From positions 25,286-89,285 of the forward strand of contig CALBHS010000177.1 in assembly GCA_937892905.1 (NCBI GenBank): DNA of 64,000 nucleotides. Reading direction: 5' to 3'. The DNA comes from an uncultured Clostridia bacterium (GTDB taxonomy: Bacteria; Bacillota; Clostridia; Oscillospirales; Acutalibacteraceae). Position 1 is the stretch's first letter. Every line of letters begins with the position of its first letter. The position numbers and the translations under genes are program-made. Below are positions 20,908 to 28,060 of the stretch, one piece after another. The notes below the pieces were generated by a model. It was given only the letters and a program-made list of their open reading frames with translations. It did no database searches and was not told the DNA's origin.

Positions 20908-21148
20908 AAAAACAATCCTTTCTCATTGTGGATAATAACCGATAAACACTTACCGATTATTGTCCGTATCATTATATCACGAATTGACGCAAAAGCAAAT
21001 GCTTTTATGGCGTTTTTTGCATAATTTATGATATTATTTTTCCATCTAAATTTTAAAATTGTATGAATTGGCGGAAAAGAAAAGGTAAACATTAAAATTT
21101 AAGGCGATATTGCAAACAAAATCTTTGTTAACACAGTACAAATTACCC

Positions 21149-21177
21149 TTGACAAAAGCCAAAAGAAAGCATATAAT
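21149..21177 (+). promoter_or_regulatory. Consensus sigma-A promoter of the tRNA-Ala gene
   Basis: TTGACA (21149-21154), a 17-nt spacer, then TATAAT (21172-21177). Both hexamers are perfect. Confidence 0.65.
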
Positions 21178-21229
21178 TTCAGTGTCAAATAAGGTTTGCG
21201 CTTTAATATGCCGCACGGCCTTAATATTT

Positions 21230-21305
21230 GGGGGCGTAGCTCAGCTGGGAGAGCGTACGGTTCGCATCCGTAAGGTCGAGAGTTCGATCCTCTTCGTCTC
21301 CACCA
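21230..21305 (+). tRNA. tRNA-Ala (anticodon CGC), CCA encoded
   Basis: Hand-folded cloverleaf: acceptor GGGGGCG/CGTCTCC with the G3:U70 Ala identity pair; D arm GCTC-AGCTGGGA-GAGC; anticodon arm TACGG-TTCGCAT-CCGTA; T arm GAGAG-TTCGATC-CTCTT; 3-prime ACCA. Confidence 0.93.
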
Positions 21306-21308
21306 AAA

Positions 21309-21335
21309 AGTCACTCCGAGAGAAGTGGCTTTTTT
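21309..21335 (+). terminator. Intrinsic terminator after tRNA-Ala
   Basis: Stem AGTCACT/AGTGGCT (one G-U pair) followed by T6. Confidence 0.65.
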
Positions 21336-21519
21336 ATAACGTTCGCCCTTCGGCAAATTTTATTTTACTTTCTGCTTCGGCAGAAAATTTCATAATCCGT
21401 AAGGATTATTTTACATTGCATTGCAATATTTCATTAAAACAATATTCATAGCTATATTTAAAATCGTACCTATTCGTGTGCGGTTTATTTTTTTGCAAAA
21501 TTTTTTTAAAAAATATATC

Positions 21520-21550
21520 TTGACTCTACAATTATTGTAGAGTTTATGAT
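21520..21550 (+). promoter_or_regulatory. MerR-type promoter/operator of the MATE-merR operon
   Basis: TTGACT (21520-21525), a 19-nt spacer, then TATGAT (21545-21550). The spacer carries a perfect 9-1-9 palindrome CTCTACAAT-T-ATTGTAGAG (21524-21542). Confidence 0.6.
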
Positions 21551-21632
21551 ATAATCATCAAGGAGAGATCGGTACATTTCGGAGAGAAAATCAGCTGTTC
21601 CCCCACGCAGAAATGTACTGACAACAAAAACT

Positions 21633-22982
21633 ATGGAAAAGAATCTTACAACAGGCAGTGTATTTAAAAATCTTATATTCTTCTCCCTGCCTTATCTGCT
21701 CTCTTACTTTTTGCAGACGCTTTACGGCATGGCTGATCTTTTTATAGTCGGACAATTCAACGCAACAGCCAGTATTACTGGCGTTTCTATCGGCAGCCAG
21801 GTCATGCACATGATAACCGTTATGATAGTCGGTCTTGCGATGGGTGCAACGGTCACGATCGGCAGAAGCATCGGCGCACAGGATAAGAGATCAGCTTCAC
21901 GCTATGTCGGAAACACGGTCACATTATTTATGCTCGGATCACTCGCTTTGGCGGCACTTCTTTTGGCTTTTGTAAGACCTATTGTTTCGGTCATGTCCAC
22001 CCCCGCAGAAGCGGTTGAAAGCACAGTTGATTATCTGACGATCTGCTTTATCGGTATCCCGTTTATTACCGCATATAATATCATCAGCTCCGTTTTTCGC
22101 GGACTCGGCGACAGCAAAAGTCCGATGTATTTTATCGCCGTTGCCTGTGTCTGCAACATAGGTCTTGACTACCTTTTTATCGGTGCACTCAGTATGGGGC
22201 CTGCCGGCGCGGCTCTCGGCACAACCCTTTCACAAACAATTTCGGTTATAATTTCATTAATTTTCATCAAAAAAACGGATACCGGGATCAAGCTTTCAAA
22301 GGATGATTTCAGAATAAAAAAATCCACGATCGGCAATGTATTGAGAGTCGGCATTCCTGTTTCTTTGCAGGACGGATTTATTCAGATTTCATTTATTGTT
22401 ATCACGATAATCGCCAACCGCCGAGGACTTAACGATGCCGCGGCAGTCGGCATTGTTGAAAAAATAATAGGATTTTTGTTCCTCATTCCGTCTTCAATGC
22501 TTTCGGCGATTTCTGCTCTCGGAGCGCAGAATATCGGAGCCGGCAAGCCACAAAGGGCAAAGCTTACTTTGCGCTATGCAATTTATCTTATCATAATTTC
22601 GGGAATTTTTGTTATCGGTACGGTTGAGCTGATCGCCCCTCAGCTTGTCGGAATGTTTGACGACAGTCCGGAGGTTATTCGCCTCGGAACTCAATATCTC
22701 AGAAGCTACGTTGTCGATTACCTCTTTGCCGGAATTCATTTCTGTATGTCCGGCTACTTTTGCGCCATTGAAAAATCCGGAATCTCATTTCTTCATAATT
22801 CGGTTTCAATTGTACTCGCAAGAGTTCCCGTTGCATACCTTACGTCAAAGCGCTTTCCGCACACCCTTTTTCCGATGGGATGCGCCGCACCGGCAGGTTC
22901 GATCATTTCCATAATAATCTGCGTGATTGCATACATTATTATCAGCAAAAAAGAGAAAGGAGAACATACCGTTAATGGATAA
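21633..22982 (+). CDS. MATE family efflux transporter
   Basis: 449 aa, 12 TM helices, with the typical N-terminus (KNLIFFSLPYLLSYFLQTLYGMADLFIVGQ). Confidence 0.9.
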   Translation: MEKNLTTGSVFKNLIFFSLPYLLSYFLQTLYGMADLFIVGQFNATASITGVSIGSQVMHMITVMIVGLAMGATVTIGRSIGAQDKRSASRYVGNTVTLFMLGSLALAALLLAFVRPIVSVMSTPAEAVESTVDYLTICFIGIPFITAYNIISSVFRGLGDSKSPMYFIAVACVCNIGLDYLFIGALSMGPAGAALGTTLSQTISVIISLIFIKKTDTGIKLSKDDFRIKKSTIGNVLRVGIPVSLQDGFIQISFIVITIIANRRGLNDAAAVGIVEKIIGFLFLIPSSMLSAISALGAQNIGAGKPQRAKLTLRYAIYLIIISGIFVIGTVELIAPQLVGMFDDSPEVIRLGTQYLRSYVVDYLFAGIHFCMSGYFCAIEKSGISFLHNSVSIVLARVPVAYLTSKRFPHTLFPMGCAAPAGSIISIIICVIAYIIISKKEKGEHTVNG

Positions 22983-23802
22983 GAGTTCACTTTTTTCGAT
23001 TGGAGATATCTCAAAGATTTTTCATCTCAGTCCGGGCAGTCTGCGCCATTATGAGAATCTCGGCATTCTCATTCCCGAATATGTTGATCCGCAGACAAAT
23101 TATCGCTATTACAGCGCAAGACAGTTCGAAATTCTTAACACAGTTCGATATCTGCGCGCACTTGATATGCCGCTGCCGCAGATTGCCGATTTTTTTAAAA
23201 ACAGGGACATTGACGTTATTGAAAATAAGCTACTGATGCAGAAGCAAAAGGTTATTGAAAAGAAAAAAGAGCTTGAAAACGTTGAAAAGAAAATTGACAA
23301 TCGCCTGCGTCAGATTGATGATGCACGCAACTCCGAACTTGAGGCAATTAAACTTGTACCTTGCTCACCGTGCCGTATAATCAGGATAAAAGGCTCCCTT
23401 AAACTGAGGAATCAGGATGAAATTGAAGCTTCCGTCAGCGCACTGAGCGAGCGCGAAGATGCACCGGTTGTTTTTCTCGGAAAGGTGGGCTTCGGAATTT
23501 CCCGTGACAATCTGATAAAAGGCAATTATGAAAAATATGATTATGTTTTTCTCGTTATCGAAGATGAGGACAAGCACAGCGGCGACTCAGAGCTTTTGCC
23601 GGAAACGCTTTGTGTGTGCGTCCGTTTCCGCGGCAGTCACGGCGAAGCGGCAGCGCACTACCGTCAGCTTTCGGATTATATTGAGAACAGCAACCTCAGA
23701 ATCACGGGCTTTTCCCGCGAAATAACGATGATCGACTATGGAATTACAAACGACACGGGAAAGTTTGTAACGGAAATTAAAATTCCTGTTGAAAAAATTT
23801 AA
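22975..23802 (+). CDS. MerR family transcriptional regulator with a GyrI-like effector domain (BmrR-like)
   Basis: An HTH (FSIGDISKIFHLSPGSLRHYENLGIL), a coiled coil and a C-terminal GyrI-like domain. Start set at Met17 (22975), overlapping the MATE stop. Confidence 0.85.
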   Translation: MDKSSLFSIGDISKIFHLSPGSLRHYENLGILIPEYVDPQTNYRYYSARQFEILNTVRYLRALDMPLPQIADFFKNRDIDVIENKLLMQKQKVIEKKKELENVEKKIDNRLRQIDDARNSELEAIKLVPCSPCRIIRIKGSLKLRNQDEIEASVSALSEREDAPVVFLGKVGFGISRDNLIKGNYEKYDYVFLVIEDEDKHSGDSELLPETLCVCVRFRGSHGEAAAHYRQLSDYIENSNLRITGFSREITMIDYGITNDTGKFVTEIKIPVEKI

Positions 23803-23821
23803 AAAATTTTCATTTAACCTA

Positions 23822-23850
23822 TTGACAAGGTAGGTAATATGTGCTATCAT
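23822..23850 (+). promoter_or_regulatory. Sigma-A promoter of the metY leader
   Basis: TTGACA (23822-23827), a 17-nt spacer, then TATCAT (23845-23850). Confidence 0.55.
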
Positions 23851-23887
23851 ACACCCAACCTAATAAATTCAACGGGAGGTAAGCAAA

Positions 23888-23977
23888 ATGAAAAACATTT
23901 CCTCAATGCTTTTTGTGATGTGTATTTGCGAATGCACTTCCTTTGCTGCGCCTTCCGATAGTAAAAAATTGAGTTAA
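23888..23977 (+). CDS. 29-codon leader peptide ORF rich in Cys/Met codons (MKNISSMLFVMCICECTSFAAPSDSKKLS)
   Basis: GGGAGG SD 8 nt upstream of the ATG. The ORF sits between a good promoter and an intrinsic terminator, directly upstream of metY. It is below the ORF-track cutoff and was found by hand. Confidence 0.45.
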   Translation: MKNISSMLFVMCICECTSFAAPSDSKKLS

Positions 23978-23982
23978 AACTA

Positions 23983-24013
23983 ACGGAAAGCCGAAAGAGC
24001 TTTCCGTTTTTTT
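23983..24013 (+). terminator. Intrinsic terminator (putative attenuator) in the metY leader
   Basis: 9-bp stem ACGGAAAGC/GCTTTCCGT with a 7-nt loop, followed by T7. It begins 6 nt after the leader ORF stop. Confidence 0.7.
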
Positions 24014-24137
24014 ATAGGTGATTTTATGAACAATATTTTTGAAAAGCTGTTACGTCAAAATTTCAGATTCGGACGAATGTAATTCTTTCCCCAAAAACAT
24101 TATAAAAAATATTTTTAAACAAGAAAGGAAAATTACC

Positions 24138-25421
24138 ATGTCAGATTATAAATTTGAAACACTTCAGCTTCATGTAGGTCAGGAGAATCCTGATCCGGCA
24201 ACCGATTCAAGAGCAGTTCCCATCTATGCAACAACTTCATATGTTTTCAAGGACTCCGCGCAGGCGGCAGGCCGTTTCGGTCTGACCGAGGGCGGCAACA
24301 TATACACAAGACTGATGAACCCGACTTCTGACGTTTTCGAAAAGAGAATCGCGGCTCTTGAGGGCGGCGCAGCGGCACTCGCAACGGCTTCAGGCTCGGC
24401 TGCAATCTCTTATGCAATTCAAAACATTGCAATCGCGGGCGACCATATTGTTTCTTCAACTAATCTTTACGGCGGCACACACAATCTTTTTGCAAACACG
24501 CTTAAGGAGCAGGGACTTGACACAACATTTGTTGATCCCTCGGATCCCGAAAATTTTGAAAAGGCAATTCAGCCGAACACCAAGCTTCTCTATGCCGAAA
24601 CGCTCGGCAATCCGAACTCCGATGTAATCGACCTTGAGGCAATTGCAGCTATTGCACACAAGCACGGTATTCCGTTCATCGTTGACAGCACCTTTGCAAC
24701 CCCGTATTTGCTCCGTCCGATTGAGCATGGAGCGGATGTTGTTGTTCATTCTGCCACAAAATTCATCGGCGGTCACGGCACGGTAATGGGCGGCGTCGTC
24801 ATTGACTCAGGCAAATTTGACTGGGCGCAGAACGACAAGTTCCCCGGACTTTCAAAGCCGAACCCGTCATATCACGGTGTTGTTTTCACCGAGGCTTGCG
24901 GCAATCTTGCTTATATTCTCAAGCTTCGCACAACACTGATGAGAGATCAAGGCGCAACTATTTCTCCGTTCAACTCGTTCCTGCTTCTCCAGGGGCTTGA
25001 AACTCTTTCGCTCAGAGTAGAGCGCCACGTTGAAAACGCTCTCAAAGTCGTTGATTTTCTCAAAAACCATCCGCAGGTTGAAAAGGTTAATCACCCCTCA
25101 CTCGCAACAGGCAAGCAGAAGGAGCTTTATGATAAATACTTTAAGAAAGGCGCAGCTTCAATCTTTACTTTTGAAATAAAAGGCGATGCCGAAACCGCCA
25201 AAAAGTTTACCGAAAGCCTTAAGCTTTTCTCGCTTCTTGCAAATGTTGCCGACGTTAAGTCGCTCGTTATTCATCCTGCATCAACAACCCATTCACAGCT
25301 CTCCGAAGAGGAGCTTCTCTCCTGCGGAATTAAGCCGAACACCGTTCGTCTTTCAATCGGCACAGAGCATATAGACGATATTATTGCCGACCTTCAGCAG
25401 GGCTTTGATGCGGTTAAATAA
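24138..25421 (+). CDS. metY: O-acetylhomoserine sulfhydrylase (PLP-dependent Cys/Met metabolism enzyme)
   Basis: [16 protein letters not shown]-terminus and the [13 protein letters not shown]-lysine motif; 427 aa. Start set at ATG 24138 (AAAGGAAA SD). The track start at 24039 adds a non-homologous extension. Confidence 0.92.
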
Positions 25422-25470
25422 ATTTCAATAATTAGAATTTTCCTTCTCATTTTCTTCCCCTTTAAAAACG

Positions 25471-25506
25471 AAGGCTCCGATTTATTTTGATCGGAGCTTT
25501 TGTTTT
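25471..25506. terminator. Bidirectional terminator between metY and the DUF2798 gene
   Basis: Stem GCTCCGAT/ATCGGAGC with extension, followed by TTTTGTTTT. Confidence 0.6.
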
Positions 25507-25993
25507 ATTTAAAAATTGCTTTGTGTATTTTTCTTGCAGCAGGACCGGCAATTAAAAGCTGAACCGGCAAAGCAAAAATAAAATTCATGCAATATGCCTT
25601 GATATAATTCGGCGCAAAATTTATACATAATCCTTCCGCCTTATACGCTCCGATTATGCTTGCAAAAAACACCTGAAAAATCACCGTAAAAATCTGAATT
25701 ACCAGCACTATAGCAATAGGTCTGTCGGTCGGCTCAACAATTTTAAAAGCGCATTTTTTTGCAAGCGGCGACGAAATAAAATAGGCACACAAAAAAATAA
25801 TTATGTACTCGATCCACATACCCTTTATCGCCGACAAAAATGTTTGATTAGTAAAGCTGCCGCTTGCCAAAACGATGTTATACACCGTCATTATATAAAC
25901 CATAATAAACGCTGTAATCGCCGTAAAAATCAGGGATTGCGATTTTGTTTTCGGCATCGGAACTTGTCTATTTTTGTCGTTTTCTTCTTTCAT
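25505..25993 (-). CDS. DUF2798-like membrane protein
   Basis: 162 aa, four TM helices in two repeats. The C-terminal NFIFALPVQLLIAGPAARKI matches my recollection of the DUF2798 signature. Confidence 0.55.
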   Translation of the reverse strand: MKEENDKNRQVPMPKTKSQSLIFTAITAFIMVYIMTVYNIVLASGSFTNQTFLSAIKGMWIEYIIIFLCAYFISSPLAKKCAFKIVEPTDRPIAIVLVIQIFTVIFQVFFASIIGAYKAEGLCINFAPNYIKAYCMNFIFALPVQLLIAGPAARKIHKAIFK

Positions 25994-26134
25994 GCTTTTG
26001 CTCCTCTCAAAAAAAGAAAGACAATAAATGCTCTCCCGTCCGACAGTAGGAAAGTAACATTTATTGTCTTGGTTTTTTATTTAATTTGAGTATATTTTAT
26101 CACTTGAAATTGCAAAAATCAAGCATTAATTCGG

Positions 26135-27604
26135 TTAATTAATTGAATACGGATGGAAAAATCTGTCGAACACATTATATCCGAGCGCAACATATTTGAA
26201 CAGCCAGATAATCGGATTAAAACGGAAGAACAGCCAATCCGTTACCGTTGCAAGTCCGCGCAGGAATGTTGAAATATCATGTGTTTCGGGAACATCAACG
26301 GGAGTAAATTCTTCGCCCTCAACATTAAGCACGAACGGCTGAGCATAACAGATTCCGTTCTCGCCCGTGATATAAAATCTTACATAAAGATACGGATCAT
26401 CGAGCAGGTTATCGCTATAGAGATTAAGAGTTGCCTTTCCGTTTGTAATGTTTTCCTCACGCTTGATAACGTTGCCGTTTGAAACCCAAGTTATGCGGTC
26501 AAAGTTTGTACCCTCAACCTTGATCGTGCCGCTTTCCTGATCAACATCAATGCGTGTAACCATTGGCGTATTATCCTGAAGATAAAGCTTCTCGTCATAA
26601 ACCTTATCCTCATCAAAGCCGGGCATTTCCTCCATGCCGTTAAGCTCAACGCCGTTCGAATAATGTGAAACGGCAAAGCTCCAGCCATTCTCCATGCTTG
26701 CACGGACATTGTTCATATCAAAGTCTTTCATCATAAGCATTGTGTAAGCGTCGTTAAGCGATCTTACGTCATGTGAGTCGGAAAAAGCAAATCCCCAGGG
26801 AACAACACCATTCGGAATTGTTTTTTGAAGAATCTGATCGTAAAGAATTCTGTCACAGCGTGTGTGCGCATCGGTCGCACTGTTAATACCCATGCCAACG
26901 CTTGATCCGGCGTTGTCAAGGAAAAGGCGTGCAAACTTGTTTGCATAATAATCGTCAACCTTTTGACCGACATGGTCAGCACTGTCCTTATCGGTGTAAA
27001 CATATTCGCCGACATGAGAAAGCATCGAAATTCCGCCTGCTTCTCTTACGCCCTTACTCGGCGTTTCATAATCACCGTAAACTCCGGCAAGTCCCTGACC
27101 GTAATCCGAAAAATAGCCCGTCAAATGGCAGTCCGCCTTTGGTGTTGCCATATTAAGTTCAATACCCTGCGGAACGTCCAGCATTCCGTTCTTATGCGTT
27201 CTCTCGGCCGAAGCCGCTGTTCCATTCTGGTATGAATCATATTCCTCATCCGTCAACGGAATGATCGGCGCCATATGTGTTCTTTCATATTTTACAAGAC
27301 GGATAAGCGGAACCAGATCGGGTTTTTGATTCCAGCCCTTGTTGATCGTTCCGTGATCTGTCAACGCAACTACATCATAATTAAGATCGTAGTGCATCTG
27401 AACGAATTCCTTAATTGTAAGATATCCGTCGCTTGCATTTGTCTGGCAGTGAGGCTGGAATTTATAGCTTCCCCACTCGTCCCAATCAACGGCCTCATAC
27501 GGATTTGTAATTACATACCTCTTGCTTTTTGCCGATACACCGATTACAAAAAGCTGTGCAGCAAGGATCACACTCAAAAATACGGCTAAAACTTTCTTTG
27601 CCAC
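26135..27604 (-). CDS. Exported PHP-domain (CehA/McbA-like) metallophosphoesterase with a C-terminal hydrophobic tail
   Basis: Signal peptide; NPY...W...PHCQTNASDG...ALTDHG and later SHVGEY / FSDSHD motifs resembling PHP metal ligands (the second His of HxH is replaced by Gln). Confidence 0.5.
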   Translation of the reverse strand: MAKKVLAVFLSVILAAQLFVIGVSAKSKRYVITNPYEAVDWDEWGSYKFQPHCQTNASDGYLTIKEFVQMHYDLNYDVVALTDHGTINKGWNQKPDLVPLIRLVKYERTHMAPIIPLTDEEYDSYQNGTAASAERTHKNGMLDVPQGIELNMATPKADCHLTGYFSDYGQGLAGVYGDYETPSKGVREAGGISMLSHVGEYVYTDKDSADHVGQKVDDYYANKFARLFLDNAGSSVGMGINSATDAHTRCDRILYDQILQKTIPNGVVPWGFAFSDSHDVRSLNDAYTMLMMKDFDMNNVRASMENGWSFAVSHYSNGVELNGMEEMPGFDEDKVYDEKLYLQDNTPMVTRIDVDQESGTIKVEGTNFDRITWVSNGNVIKREENITNGKATLNLYSDNLLDDPYLYVRFYITGENGICYAQPFVLNVEGEEFTPVDVPETHDISTFLRGLATVTDWLFFRFNPIIWLFKYVALGYNVFDRFFHPYSIN

Positions 27605-27790
27605 TCTGTTTTCCTCCTCCGATAAATGATAGGTTTATTTAATTATGAATGGTTTTGTGCTGTTTGTCAATTGTTTGATGTGTAGACATTTTATGTTTGC
27701 TTTTTGTTGAAAATGCTAAAAGAAAAACCGCATTCATCCTTTCGGTGAATTACGGCTTTTGTTTGTATCCATTTTTATTAAATCAATAAA

Positions 27791-28060
27791 CTATTTTCTT
27801 TGGTTCTTTCTTTTTATTTCGTGAAGCCTTTCAAGCTCTTCGTTGCGTTCCTTTTCGACCTTTTTCTTAGCATTTTCTGCTTTTTTCGCCTTTATCTTTC
27901 CGCTTATGTCGAATTTTATCTGACTTAACACAACGCAGATGATAATAATCGCAACAAGAGCTATTATCCATACAGCCTTTTGCTTCTCGCCGCCGTCATT
28001 TTGAATAGGGTCAAGCTCGCTTACGCTTATTGCCAAGGTATTCAGAAAATATTTAAACAA
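27791..28060 (-). CDS. Hypothetical single-pass membrane protein with a Lys/Glu-rich tail
   Basis: 89-aa ORF overlapping the maf stop by 8 nt, with one TM helix. It is followed by a hairpin and T-run. Confidence 0.4.
   Translation of the reverse strand: MFKYFLNTLAISVSELDPIQNDGGEKQKAVWIIALVAIIIICVVLSQIKFDISGKIKAKKAENAKKKVEKERNEELERLHEIKRKNQRK

Follow-up and report, generated by a model that had tools for sequence, protein, structure and literature searches.

How metY is controlled is the question raised by this locus, which lies in 64,000 nt of DNA from an uncultured Clostridia bacterium (the window, that is, the whole stretch analyzed). In Firmicutes, riboswitches and T-boxes are the textbook regulators of methionine and cysteine genes. 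In Rfam searches no S-box, T-box or other family was found at gathering score in the whole window, and over positions 23700-24250 only unrelated families far below thresholds were retrieved at E<=10. The earlier reading of this leader as free of S-box and T-box elements thus holds; no riboswitch was found by Rfam upstream of metY in 37 related loci. The metY leader looks like an undescribed ribosome-read sulfur amino-acid sensor of gut Clostridia. On balance, and with confidence only a little better than even, we regard it as a tandem leader in which ribosomes read the supply of sulfur amino acids at two stages, placed under a promoter with a probable repressor operator.

The gene and its promoter region comprise the following elements:

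23818..23834, + strand, palindrome CCTATTGACAAGGTAGG (CCTA-N9-TAGG) spanning the -35 box; probably the operator of a repressor
23822..23850, + strand, sigma-70-type promoter (TTGACA, 17 nt, TGn-TATCAT) matching 11 of 12 consensus positions, with an extended -10
24123..24129, + strand, metY SD region GAAAGGA
24138..25421, + strand, metY, O-acetylhomoserine sulfhydrylase (homocysteine synthase), start ATG at 24138; the presumed regulated gene

The product of metY matches Pfam PF01053 at 2.6e-139 and NCBIfam TIGR01326 with 657 bits, above the cut-off of 495, in agreement with the original prediction of an O-acetylhomoserine sulfhydrylase. The near-consensus promoter reported earlier was also recovered, with TTGACA at 23822-27, a 17-nt spacer, TATCAT at 23845-50 and TG at 23842-43; transcription would start near 23857. 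At least 11 consensus matches are reached by only 3 of the 27 promoter-like sites located between 21000 and 28000, and an identical promoter type is found in related loci immediately ahead of a conserved short ORF (sORF). The CCTA-N9-TAGG palindrome has a single match across the 64 kb window, and in 23 of 72 related loci it lies no more than 300 nt ahead of metY, where chance would give 0.006 per locus. Its position over the -35 box suggests a putative operator and control by a repressor in addition. A promoter scan detected no promoter between the terminator described below and metY, and metY mRNA must therefore read through that terminator.

The first part of the leader holds a short ORF, sORF1, and the terminator:

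23874..23879, + strand, SD1 GGGAGG of sORF1, also region 1 of a predicted 1:2 helix (23871-23887)
23888..23977, + strand, sORF1, 29 codons, MKNISSMLFVMCICECTSFAAPSDSKKLS, with a Met/Cys cluster at codons 7-16 (23906-23935)
23942..23959, + strand, region 2, CUUUGCUGCGCCUUCCGA, able to pair with SD1 (1:2) or with the terminator 5' arm (2:3)
23950..23957, + strand, GCCUUCCG, the part of region 2 pairing with the terminator 5' arm; candidate antiterminator
23982..24013, + strand, intrinsic terminator, stem 23982-91 with 23999-24008, loop CGAAAGA, seven T

The SD and the leader ORF are as originally described, GGGAGG being found 8 nt before ATG 23888 and followed by 29 codons, and translation places Met at codons 7 and 11 and Cys at codons 12, 14 and 16. 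Among 388 ATG-started ORFs of 15-60 codons, collected from both strands and all frames of the window, sORF1 alone features at least five Met/Cys in 10 residues. As a sequence, it is restricted to the window lineage, made up by the window and its two closest related lineages, L001 and L188, in which the frame is kept through 3-nt indels. Conservation of the Cys/Met codons within this lineage holds for M7, M11, C12 and C14, but not for C16, replaced by Tyr in both relatives. Strain variants in sORF1, monitored in 10 contigs with identical MetY, are mostly synonymous, the variation being too little to test selection.

The architecture is more widespread than the sequence. A short Met/Cys-dense ORF followed by a terminator was found at the same position in 10 of 63 non-redundant related leaders, corresponding to about 8 lineages, the terminators being intrinsic and located close upstream of the next SD. 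ORFs analogous to sORF1 occur in loci L126, L135, L139, L170, L178, L184 and L192. The encoded peptides are mutually unrelated and have Met/Cys codons as their sole common feature, a result in line with the comparative expectation that such codons are retained in a peptide otherwise free to change. In 8 loci (7 lineages, that of the window included) 5-8 of 12 residues are Met or Cys; the figure is 4 in L001 and L188, and 4 is also the maximum in 72 control windows. No Met/Cys-dense leader ORF above control level was detected upstream of metY in genome loci devoid of the second sORF described below.

The strong terminator reported after sORF1 was confirmed by a scan giving a 10-bp stem and seven T; the hairpin, with its 7-nt loop, folds at -14.3 kcal/mol. 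Homologous terminators are present in related units, and in relatives one-sided changes are found with pairs retained. The original prediction had identified no 1:2 pairing partner. One was found: 23942-59 is predicted to form a helix of -20.7 kcal/mol with SD1 and its flank, whereas shuffles average -11.2 +/- 2.2. In the window the energies range from -13.7 to -20.7 kcal/mol for the 1:2 pairing and amount to -11.0 kcal/mol for 2:3. In about half of the loci the 1:2 helix scores significantly; it is invariant across the window, L001 and L188, and RNAalifold run on the three sequences reveals almost no covariation. The location of GCCTTCCG at 23950-57 was correct. Its proposed role as antiterminator stays that of a candidate: among related loci, the 2:3 pairing exceeds that of shuffled region 2 in only two of five (p = 0.01-0.03), and is not significant in three.

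The effect of ribosomes was followed in a co-transcriptional folding model with imposed ribosome positions. For the window it predicts that the terminator 5' arm is paired at 0.76-0.78 when a ribosome occupies the Met/Cys codons, and at 0.09 without one. Across loci, the predicted values are 0.54-0.80 for a ribosome stalled on the cluster; when the ribosome stands at the stop codon instead, pairing is lower in six of seven scorable loci (0.16-0.48) and equal in L184, and without ribosome it varies from 0.09, the window value, to 0.80, being lower than in the cluster-stalled state in seven of nine loci. The sORF1 stop lies 4-12 nt from the terminator stem in the window lineage (4 nt in the window), and the regulatory sign of this first stage is therefore ambiguous: a ribosome terminating at the sORF1 stop could itself block the terminator in the window.

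The 125 nt between terminator and metY (24013-24137), first read as AT-rich spacer, contain a second ORF with its own SD:

24016..24021, + strand, SD2 AGGTGA of sORF2, read from the sequence
24026..24082, + strand, sORF2, 18 codons from ATG 24026, stop TAA at 24080-82, with CGA-ATG at 24074-24079
24083..24090, + strand, anti-SD UUCUUUCC, directly 3' of the sORF2 stop and predicted to pair with the metY SD

The product of sORF2 is a member of a large unnamed family of peptides fitting M-x3-F-x2-L-x-R-x-N-F-R-F-G-R-M, usually followed by Cys codons. In a set of 80 loci fetched via the MetY protein alone, relatives of sORF2 reside just upstream of metY in 19, and at no other place in those loci. 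A DNA pattern scan detected at least 120 metagenome loci, about 100 of which, among the matches listed, carry the full peptide motif; the genes found downstream, again among the matches listed, are metY, metN or metQ, in Clostridia. In L135, L178 and L188 the terminator is followed by a similar SD of the GAGGTGATTTT type; the sORF2 start of L188 is one base out of frame. No family was found for sORF1 or five sORF2 relatives by Pfam and NCBIfam profiles at E<=10; similarly, none of 140 predicted small proteins carrying the motif has a Pfam match, and 'hypothetical protein' is the sole name given to them.

Conservation of sORF2 concerns the peptide. In 54 peptides R10, N12, G16, R17 and M18 are invariant, and F13, R14 and F15 at least 90% conserved. 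Codons vary: the Arg at -8, invariant as residue, is encoded by all six Arg codons, the Arg at -4 by five, AGA <-> CGN switches included, and the Gly at -2 by three, and complete Arg codon switches separate close relatives. The entropy at codon positions 1, 2 and 3 is 0.80, 0.48 and 1.18 bits, and codon differences at nine conserved positions are synonymous in 466 cases and non-synonymous in 132. Judged from these codon patterns, the peptide is under purifying selection. As a leader peptide, sORF2 is far more widespread and conserved than sORF1. The Arg preceding the final Met is encoded by CGA in 19 of 19 loci, and also in three degenerate copies inspected by eye; CGA makes up 4.8% of the Arg codons in 14 window genes. 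RNA pairing was rejected as the general reason for the invariant CGA, since it fits some loci (L016, CGAAU-AUUCG) but not the common class. The distance from the start is similarly constrained: of 69 non-redundant leaders, 46 have their ATG exactly 17 codons ahead of the conserved Met. Conservation ends at this Met. The next codon is Cys in 34 of the 69 leaders and a stop in 14, and Cys codons are enriched in the tail after the Met in 46; in the window, the stop directly follows Met18 and there is no Cys codon.

The hypothesis that sORF1 and its terminator are a decayed tandem copy of the sORF2 unit was rejected, local alignments of the two units, and of unit A with five canonical leaders, being no better than those of shuffles. 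The idea had been prompted by a CGAATG in another frame, followed by Cys-Cys, which reads CGAATA in L001 and L188.

The metY SD is predicted to be masked by the sequence at the end of sORF2. In the window, blocking positions -14..+15 around the Met codon lowers the pairing probability of the SD from about 0.65 to about 0.2. Paired anywhere, the metY SD scores 0.68 against 0.54 in shuffles, only a modest excess; pairing to the ribosome footprint and the comparison of own with foreign SDs were therefore used instead. Pairing of the SD with the stretch -18..+15 at the Met codon is predicted at 0.46, shuffles giving 0.11 (52 loci, p=1e-6), and each locus pairs better with its own SD than with those of other loci (-8.9 vs. 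-7.1 kcal/mol, p<=3e-4), both p-values being optimistic because the loci are mutually related. L001 and L188 feature differing anti-SDs at the same place, each matched to the flank of its own SD. The class I pairing may in part simply reflect two sequences that are conserved for separate reasons.

From the sequence and the predicted pairings we infer stalling, the signal sensed and the direction of control in the tandem leader as follows. The Met/Cys codon cluster of sORF1 would serve in stage 1 (23888-24013) as the sensor for transcription attenuation. When charged tRNA-Met and tRNA-Cys are plentiful, or sORF1 is untranslated, region 2 would be covered by the ribosome or paired with SD1, the terminator would form and most transcripts would stop near 24013. 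A ribosome held at the Met/Cys codons would allow region 2 to pair with the terminator 5' arm, and RNA polymerase to read through. In transcripts reaching stage 2 (24016-24137), the metY SD would be masked by the stretch just 3' of sORF2, and freed when a ribosome lingering at the end of sORF2 covers that stretch. Lingering would take place at the invariant rare CGA and the single Met codon, while the tunnel holds the conserved nascent chain of 17 residues, and would be most likely under scarcity of Met-tRNA; the Cys codons found after the Met in most relatives may add sensitivity to Cys-tRNA. Methionine, not cysteine, is pointed to as the main signal because the genes downstream of the family are metY, metN and metQ, and sORF2 is probably the main control of metY translation. 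The ribosome-mediated Cys/Met attenuator originally proposed thus survives in part: recurrent leaders and the 1:2 helix speak for it, but sORF2 had been missed, the antiterminator is weak and Cys16 is lost in relatives. A single Met codon would be a thin sensor for a hungry-codon mechanism, which counts against the tandem reading.

Alternatively, sORF2 may encode a ligand-dependent arrest peptide, of TnaC/SpeFL type or like the plant CGS1 leader, the nascent chain binding free methionine, S-adenosylmethionine or a pathway intermediate and altering how the ribosome elongates or terminates at Met18. Sensing would then be done by the peptide itself and not through charged-tRNA supply. The strongly conserved sequence and fixed N-terminal length, neither of which is found in classical hungry-codon leaders, agree with this, as does the end of conservation at one residue, with a stop next in 14 of 69 leaders, window included, as in TnaC and SpeFL. 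We nevertheless hold it unlikely: stalling is predicted to unmask the SD and turn the gene on, so that an inducing ligand must signal methionine shortage, and Cys codons after the Met, present in 46 of 69 tails, better suit tRNA sensing. The conserved peptide might also act in trans, as a small protein that is partner or regulator of methionine enzymes or of a transporter. Purifying selection on sORF2 and the prediction of the family as small proteins in public data fit this reading, which is very improbable: among the matches listed sORF2 always lies directly 5' of one of three kinds of methionine gene, the tail after Met18 is freely variable and often absent, CGA is invariant at the nucleotide level, and the anti-SD falls inside the footprint of the last codons. 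Placement, variable tail, invariant CGA and anti-SD position argue therefore for action in cis during translation.

Another reading concerns sORF1: only sORF2 and the promoter operator would regulate metY, and sORF1 with the terminator would be a lineage-specific insertion, either a leaky brake of constant strength or a tiny gene in its own right, whose Met/Cys codons sense nothing in this organism. In accord with this, the sORF1 sequence is limited to the window, L001 and L188, the two relatives have lost Cys16 and, with a Met/Cys density of 4, do not exceed the controls, the sORF1 stop is too near the stem for classical geometry, and antiterminator support in related loci is weak. Yet the same architecture recurs in about seven other lineages at much higher Met/Cys density, the sORF1 frame survives 3-nt indels with mostly synonymous strain changes, the 1:2 helix of the window is far stronger than in shuffles, and an unregulated strong terminator would be costly for a metY lacking any other promoter; an insertion of this kind is decidedly unlikely. 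That the leader is an undescribed riboswitch or a protein-bound RNA in which the ORFs are incidental is scarcely credible. RNA sensors are usual for Firmicutes met genes, and the whole leader folds somewhat better than shuffles (z = -2.1), but three-base periodicity, synonymous turnover, complete Arg codon switches between close relatives, the fixed length of sORF2 and the lack of any Rfam match stand against it.

The data suggest that a large group of gut and rumen Clostridia may use translated leaders instead of riboswitches or T-boxes, sometimes two kinds serially. With its invariant CGA-AUG end, sORF2 is a testable candidate for a new regulatory nascent peptide, and touches on two open questions, the use of one codon as amino-acid sensor and peptide-based methionine sensing in bacteria. 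A bolder proposal, doubtful but possible, is that M-x3-F-x2-L-x-R-x-N-F-R-F-G-R-M peptides are new bacterial nascent-chain methionine sensors, in which the conserved chain of 17 residues and an obligatory CGA in the P site jointly make decoding of the one Met codon, or termination after it, rate-limiting and signal-dependent. If true, metY and metNIQ would form a ribosome-read methionine regulon in gut and rumen Clostridia, sORF2 control being stacked in some lineages behind a separate Met/Cys hungry-codon attenuator, and bacteria would have their first known equivalent of the CGS1-type control of plants. A literature search retrieved no description of the FRFGRM motif, of Met/Cys leader peptides in Firmicutes, or of methionine-sensing arrest peptides. 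Neither sORF1 nor sORF2 is annotated as a gene in the public assemblies examined, and such leaders are therefore likely misread as spacer.

Stage 1 resembles the trpL, hisL, leuL, thrL, pheL and ilvL leaders of E. coli and Salmonella in being a short leader ORF with codons for the pathway amino acids, followed by an intrinsic terminator before the structural gene, with predicted alternative pairings at the terminator 5' arm; it also keeps the regulatory codons while the remaining peptide drifts. It differs from these classical attenuators in the proposed sensing of both Met and Cys, in having as region 1 the SD of the ORF itself rather than the codons of the stalled ribosome, in the weakly supported antiterminator, and in being followed by a second, different leader peptide. 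We know of no precedent for attenuation by Met/Cys-codon leaders in Firmicutes. In Actinobacteria, no Met leader was found (PMC1262725). In mycobacteria, polycysteine sORF attenuators consist of an upstream short ORF with Cys codons near the 3' end (Canestrari et al., bioRxiv 10.1101/834739). Their output logic is that proposed here for stage 2, but they are leaderless, unconserved except for the Cys runs, and control cysteine genes (bioRxiv 10.1101/834739). In contrast, sORF2 has an SD, encodes a conserved 18-residue peptide ending in CGA-AUG, contains few Cys codons (none in the window), and precedes genes of methionine synthesis and uptake.

Like TnaC, SpeFL, SecM, MifM, ErmCL/ErmBL and MsrDL, sORF2 is a conserved peptide with a fixed distance from the N-terminus to a critical codon, and its conservation ends at one codon, often beside the stop; in erm leaders, too, the stalled ribosome exposes a downstream signal, as proposed for sORF2. 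It has no sequence similarity to any of these peptides, and arrest is for sORF2 a matter of resemblance only. To our knowledge, none of these arrest peptides has been described as having an invariant rare codon in the presumed P site. In yeast, CGA-CGA and CGA-CCG pairs slow elongation, an effect partly rescued by more tRNA (Tesina et al., bioRxiv 10.1101/755652), and ribosomes paused at inhibitory CGA pairs have empty A sites (bioRxiv 10.1101/755652). This is the behaviour needed for one following Met codon to sense the supply of Met-tRNA, and by analogy CGA pausing may carry over from yeast to the Clostridia leader.

The Arabidopsis CGS1 gene (MTO1 region) is similar in that a nascent peptide controls the first committed sulfur-incorporating step of methionine synthesis. 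In CGS1, SAM triggers the arrest within the coding sequence itself, and expression falls through mRNA decay; sORF2 differs in being a separate leader ORF, at which a stall would be expected to increase expression. Clostridia and other Firmicutes normally control met and cys genes by S-box and T-box RNAs. With S-box (SAM-I) and Met/Cys T-box RNAs the metY leader shares the genes controlled and the position in the mRNA, and stage 1 shares the terminator output; unlike them, its signal would be read by the ribosome, not through an RNA aptamer or the binding of uncharged tRNA.

The leader of metY in the window is, from sequence comparison, a tandem: a predicted Met/Cys attenuator that varies among lineages, then a conserved leader peptide that is widely distributed, has escaped annotation and is linked to methionine genes. 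The features of the original observation are confirmed, and are of greater interest than was first described. The elements are:

23818-34, CCTA-N9-TAGG palindrome CCTATTGACAAGGTAGG, surrounding the -35 box of the metY promoter
23822-27 and 23845-50, metY promoter read from the sequence (TTGACA, 17 nt, TATCAT), with TG at 23842-43
23874-79, SD1 (GGGAGG), 8 nt before ATG 23888
23888-23977, sORF1, encoding MKNISSMLFVMCICECTSFAAPSDSKKLS
23982-91 with 23999-24008, intrinsic terminator found by scan (10-bp stem, 7-nt loop, seven T)
24016-21, SD2 (AGGTGA)
24026-24082, sORF2 (ATG 24026, TAA 24080-82)
24138-25421, metY, O-acetylhomoserine sulfhydrylase

The SD and the 29-codon Cys/Met-rich ORF lie where they had been predicted, and among the 388 window ORFs that begin with ATG and span 15-60 codons, sORF1 alone features at least 5 Met/Cys per 10 residues. 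The strong terminator reported after it was retrieved by the scan, and its hairpin folds at -14.3 kcal/mol. The sORF1 sequence is confined to the window, L001 and L188 (a metagenome contig, MetY 95% identical), where the frame survives one codon insertion and one codon deletion; M7, M11, C12 and C14 are conserved, while C16 is changed to Tyr in L001 and L188. Between strains, sORF1 varies only by K27N and two synonymous changes. Both sORF1 and sORF2 are present, neither called as a gene, in ten public contigs whose MetY is identical (L206-L215); in these, the variant 23983 A to G still allows G-U pairing in the stem of the terminator. That the sORF1 unit arose by duplication of the sORF2 unit and later decay was considered and rejected, alignment scores being at shuffle level. 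The reported lack of S-box and T-box elements holds: no Rfam family reached gathering score in the window, and nothing relevant was detected at E<=10 in 23700-24250. Neither these nor other known riboswitches were found upstream of metY in 37 related Clostridia loci (20 without sORF2, from L002-L037, and 17 with sORF2), and the usual Firmicute RNA sensors for metY appear absent from this clade.

A similar architecture, a Met/Cys-dense ORF plus terminator, recurs in other lineages, as seen when the region 5' of sORF2 was inspected in each of the 63 non-redundant leaders whose flank was long enough:

L184, ...IMMMVMRMQTCCMCMILAP...
L126, ...ATMCIMGMCGEFRMCMM..., preceding a metQ-type gene
L135, ...KSMMCYDMHCEMRMRLIM...
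L139, ...AMMELWMCMSEDMCMRL...
L170, ...TGMCMCMRTV...
L192, ...TVMMCMCMRFR...
L178, ...NCMMSRDMRCDERM...

In all seven loci the ORF is preceded by a strong SD and followed by an intrinsic terminator close 5' of the sORF2 SD, the T-run beginning 17-27 nt before the sORF2 start in loci scored by scan. Met plus Cys density in such ORFs is 5-8 per 12 residues, vs. a maximum of 4 in 72 control windows; within this class, sORF1 of the window (5) has the lowest density, and L001 and L188 (4) fall inside the control range. Peptides of different lineages have no common feature besides Met/Cys, so that the signature anticipated in the original prediction, Cys/Met codons persisting while the rest of the peptide drifts, is found in seven further loci.

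A partner for classical 1:2 pairing, originally reported as missing, is provided by SD1: the predicted helix between ACGGGAGGUAAGCAAAA and CUUUGCUGCGCCUUCCGA (23942-59) has -20.7 kcal/mol, vs. -11.2 +/- 2.2 for shuffled sequences, none of 200 shuffles reaching this value. The helix is part of the MFE fold and unchanged across three relatives. Helices joining SD1 to the 3' end are significant in L184, L170 and L188, but not, relative to shuffles, in L126, L135, L178 and L192. The proposed antiterminator 2:3 (GCCUUCCG with CGGAAAGC) is predicted to pair at -11.0 kcal/mol in the window, but beats shuffles in only 2 of the 5 related loci scored. Pairing was modeled on the RNA preceding the terminator 3' arm, the ribosome being placed on the Met/Cys cluster, placed at the stop codon, or absent. 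With the ribosome at the cluster, the terminator 5' arm is 0.54-0.80 paired in 9/9 loci; pairing is lower with the ribosome at the stop codon in 6/7 scorable loci (0.16-0.48; L184 unchanged), and without ribosome in 7/9. Modeled values for the window are 0.76-0.78 with a stalled ribosome and 0.09 without. These predicted pairings fit classical attenuation, with moderate support. The caveat that a terminating ribosome could also block the hairpin stands, because in the window and L188 only 4-12 nt separate the sORF1 stop from the stem, vs. 19-44 nt elsewhere.

What had been described as an AT-rich spacer before metY contains sORF2 with its own SD. Small ORFs upstream of metY were listed in 80 loci retrieved via the MetY protein alone. 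The sORF1 peptide was found in L001 only, whose MetY is identical; the recurring ORF is a different one, ending in ...NFRFGRM, usually followed by Cys codons. It resides in 19/80 loci, always directly 5' of metY, and has no other copy in the 3 kb flanking each side. A pattern scan of metagenome DNA detected at least 120 loci; among the matches listed, about 100 carry the full motif and about 15 are chance matches within long ORFs. Among the same matches the next gene is mostly metY, about 17 encoding a MetQ/NlpA-type lipoprotein and 4 a MetN-type ABC ATPase (best NCBIfam matches, below curated cut-offs), and the leader thus marks genes of methionine synthesis and uptake. No Pfam or NCBIfam model matches sORF1 or the five sORF2 relatives scanned. 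In a collection of 5.8 billion proteins, 140 predicted small proteins feature the motif, all unnamed or hypothetical; the two checked for genomic context again lie at metY. In the openly accessible literature that was searched, neither the motif nor a leader of this kind was found described. In L188 the sORF2 ATG is one base out of frame in an A-run, the remaining frame being intact, which would reflect either misassembly or decay of the leader.

Selection was analyzed on the loci found through MetY, a sample therefore free of bias from the nucleotide pattern. The invariant Arg at -8 uses all six codons, Arg -4 and Leu -10 five each, Gly -2 three. Window and L001 leaders are 95% identical, and a TTA-CGT to CTG-AGA replacement in sORF2 involves four base changes, all silent. 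Entropy at codon positions 1/2/3 is 0.80/0.48/1.18 bits, and at nine conserved positions synonymous differences outnumber non-synonymous ones (466 vs. 132), a pattern arguing for selection on the sORF2 peptide. In two respects the constraint exceeds that usual for coding sequence. The Arg preceding the final Met is encoded by CGA in 19/19 loci (also in three degenerate copies, by eye), although this codon makes up only 4.8% of Arg usage across 14 genes of the window; and the start lies exactly 17 codons before this Met in 46/69 non-redundant leaders. Conservation ends at the Met. The following codon is Cys in 34 of the 69 leaders, stop in 14 (window included), Tyr in 5, Arg in 5, with others making up the remainder, and 46/69 tails have Cys within eight residues.

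The conserved Met codon is mostly 50-80 nt from the next gene start, a gap too short for a terminator. In partition-function folds the gene SD pairs with the -18..+15 interval around this codon with probability 0.46, vs. 0.11 once the RNA upstream has been dinucleotide-shuffled (Wilcoxon p=1e-6 over 52 non-redundant loci), and duplexes of the footprint with its own SD average -8.9 kcal/mol, vs. -7.1 with SDs of other loci (p 6e-5 to 3e-4), all p-values being optimistic because the loci are related to one another. Anti-SD sequences reside either within the N-F-R-F codons (class I, AAUUUCCGnUUCG with CGAAAGGAAAU) or in the 15 nt that directly follow the Met codon (class II), both inside the footprint of a ribosome with P or A site on that codon. 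The window lineage is a good example, with three different post-Met sequences each matching their own SD flank:

Window, UUCUUUC with GAAAGGA
L001, UUCU..CUUGU with ACAAG..AGGA
L188, ACAUUUCC with GGAAAUGU

Blocking -14..+15 around 24077 in the window is predicted to lower pairing of AAGG (24125-28) from ~0.65 to ~0.2. The strain variant 24088 T to C (L206-L215) falls inside the anti-SD. In the MFE fold the SD2 region GGUGAUUUU (24017-24025) pairs with AAAAUUACC (24129-24137), just 5' of the metY ATG, a predicted pairing, identical in L001 and lost in L188, which would link initiation at sORF2 with accessibility of the metY start. In L084, L143 and L165 a long-tailed sORF2 is followed by ~240 nt with an intrinsic terminator, whose 5' arm UCCGGGAG is complementary to CUCCCGGA right after the conserved Met codon; in this lineage the peptide may drive transcriptional output.

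The near-consensus promoter at 23822-23850 is present as described, being one of only three sites with at least 11/12 consensus matches in 21000-28000. The palindrome around its -35 box is the sole copy in the window, and is found within 300 nt upstream of metY in 23/72 related loci (L002, L005, L008, L011, L020, L025-L027, L031, L036, L061, L063, L075 and others; 0.006 expected per locus), typically as CCTATTGACAAAGTAGG around the -35 box, in loci with and without leader ORFs alike. Often there is also a second, less strict copy, overlapping the first sORF's SD. The palindrome is probably a repressor operator, a third layer of metY control. As for neighbors, a MATE efflux gene and an overlapping MerR/GyrI-like regulator gene (21633-23802) lie directly upstream of the promoter in the window and are common to all strain-level relatives, a link to metY control not being evident; Rrf2-type genes adjoin L080, L168 and L204/L205. 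A lone tRNA-Ala(CGC) gene (21230-21305) lies behind a perfect 12/12 consensus promoter (21149-21177).

The mechanism proposed here starts from what the sequences show, namely the leader parts and how they are conserved, the selection acting on the sORF2 peptide, the methionine-gene link and the predicted pairings. When charged tRNA is short, ribosomes would slow at the sORF1 Met/Cys codons, favoring read-through of the terminator; on the read-through RNA, a ribosome lingering at the sORF2 CGA-AUG would cover the anti-SD and make metY translatable. The invariant CGA may matter because this codon is decoded via inosine-adenosine wobble. In yeast, CGA-containing codon pairs cause slow elongation with an empty A site, partially rescued by more tRNA (10.1101/755652), and by analogy CGA-dependent slowing would allow a single Met codon to serve as a sensor. 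The conserved chain may contribute to this slowing, or it may bind a ligand. In a rival and less likely reading, sORF2 would be a ligand-dependent arrest peptide, the ligand being bound by the nascent chain; since the stall should switch the gene on, however, the ligand would have to signal shortage.

The two proposed stages can be compared with known systems. Stage 1, sORF1 and its terminator, would work as trp/his-type attenuation does, a Met/Cys form of which is not known to us from Firmicutes. Cys-codon leaders have been described in Actinobacteria (PMC1262725; 10.1101/834739), an earlier survey of which did not find a methionine leader (PMC1262725). sORF2 resembles arrest peptides in conserved sequence and fixed length, but is not classed among them here. 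Stage 2, sORF2 and the metY SD, would be alike in output to erm leaders and mycobacterial polycysteine sORFs.
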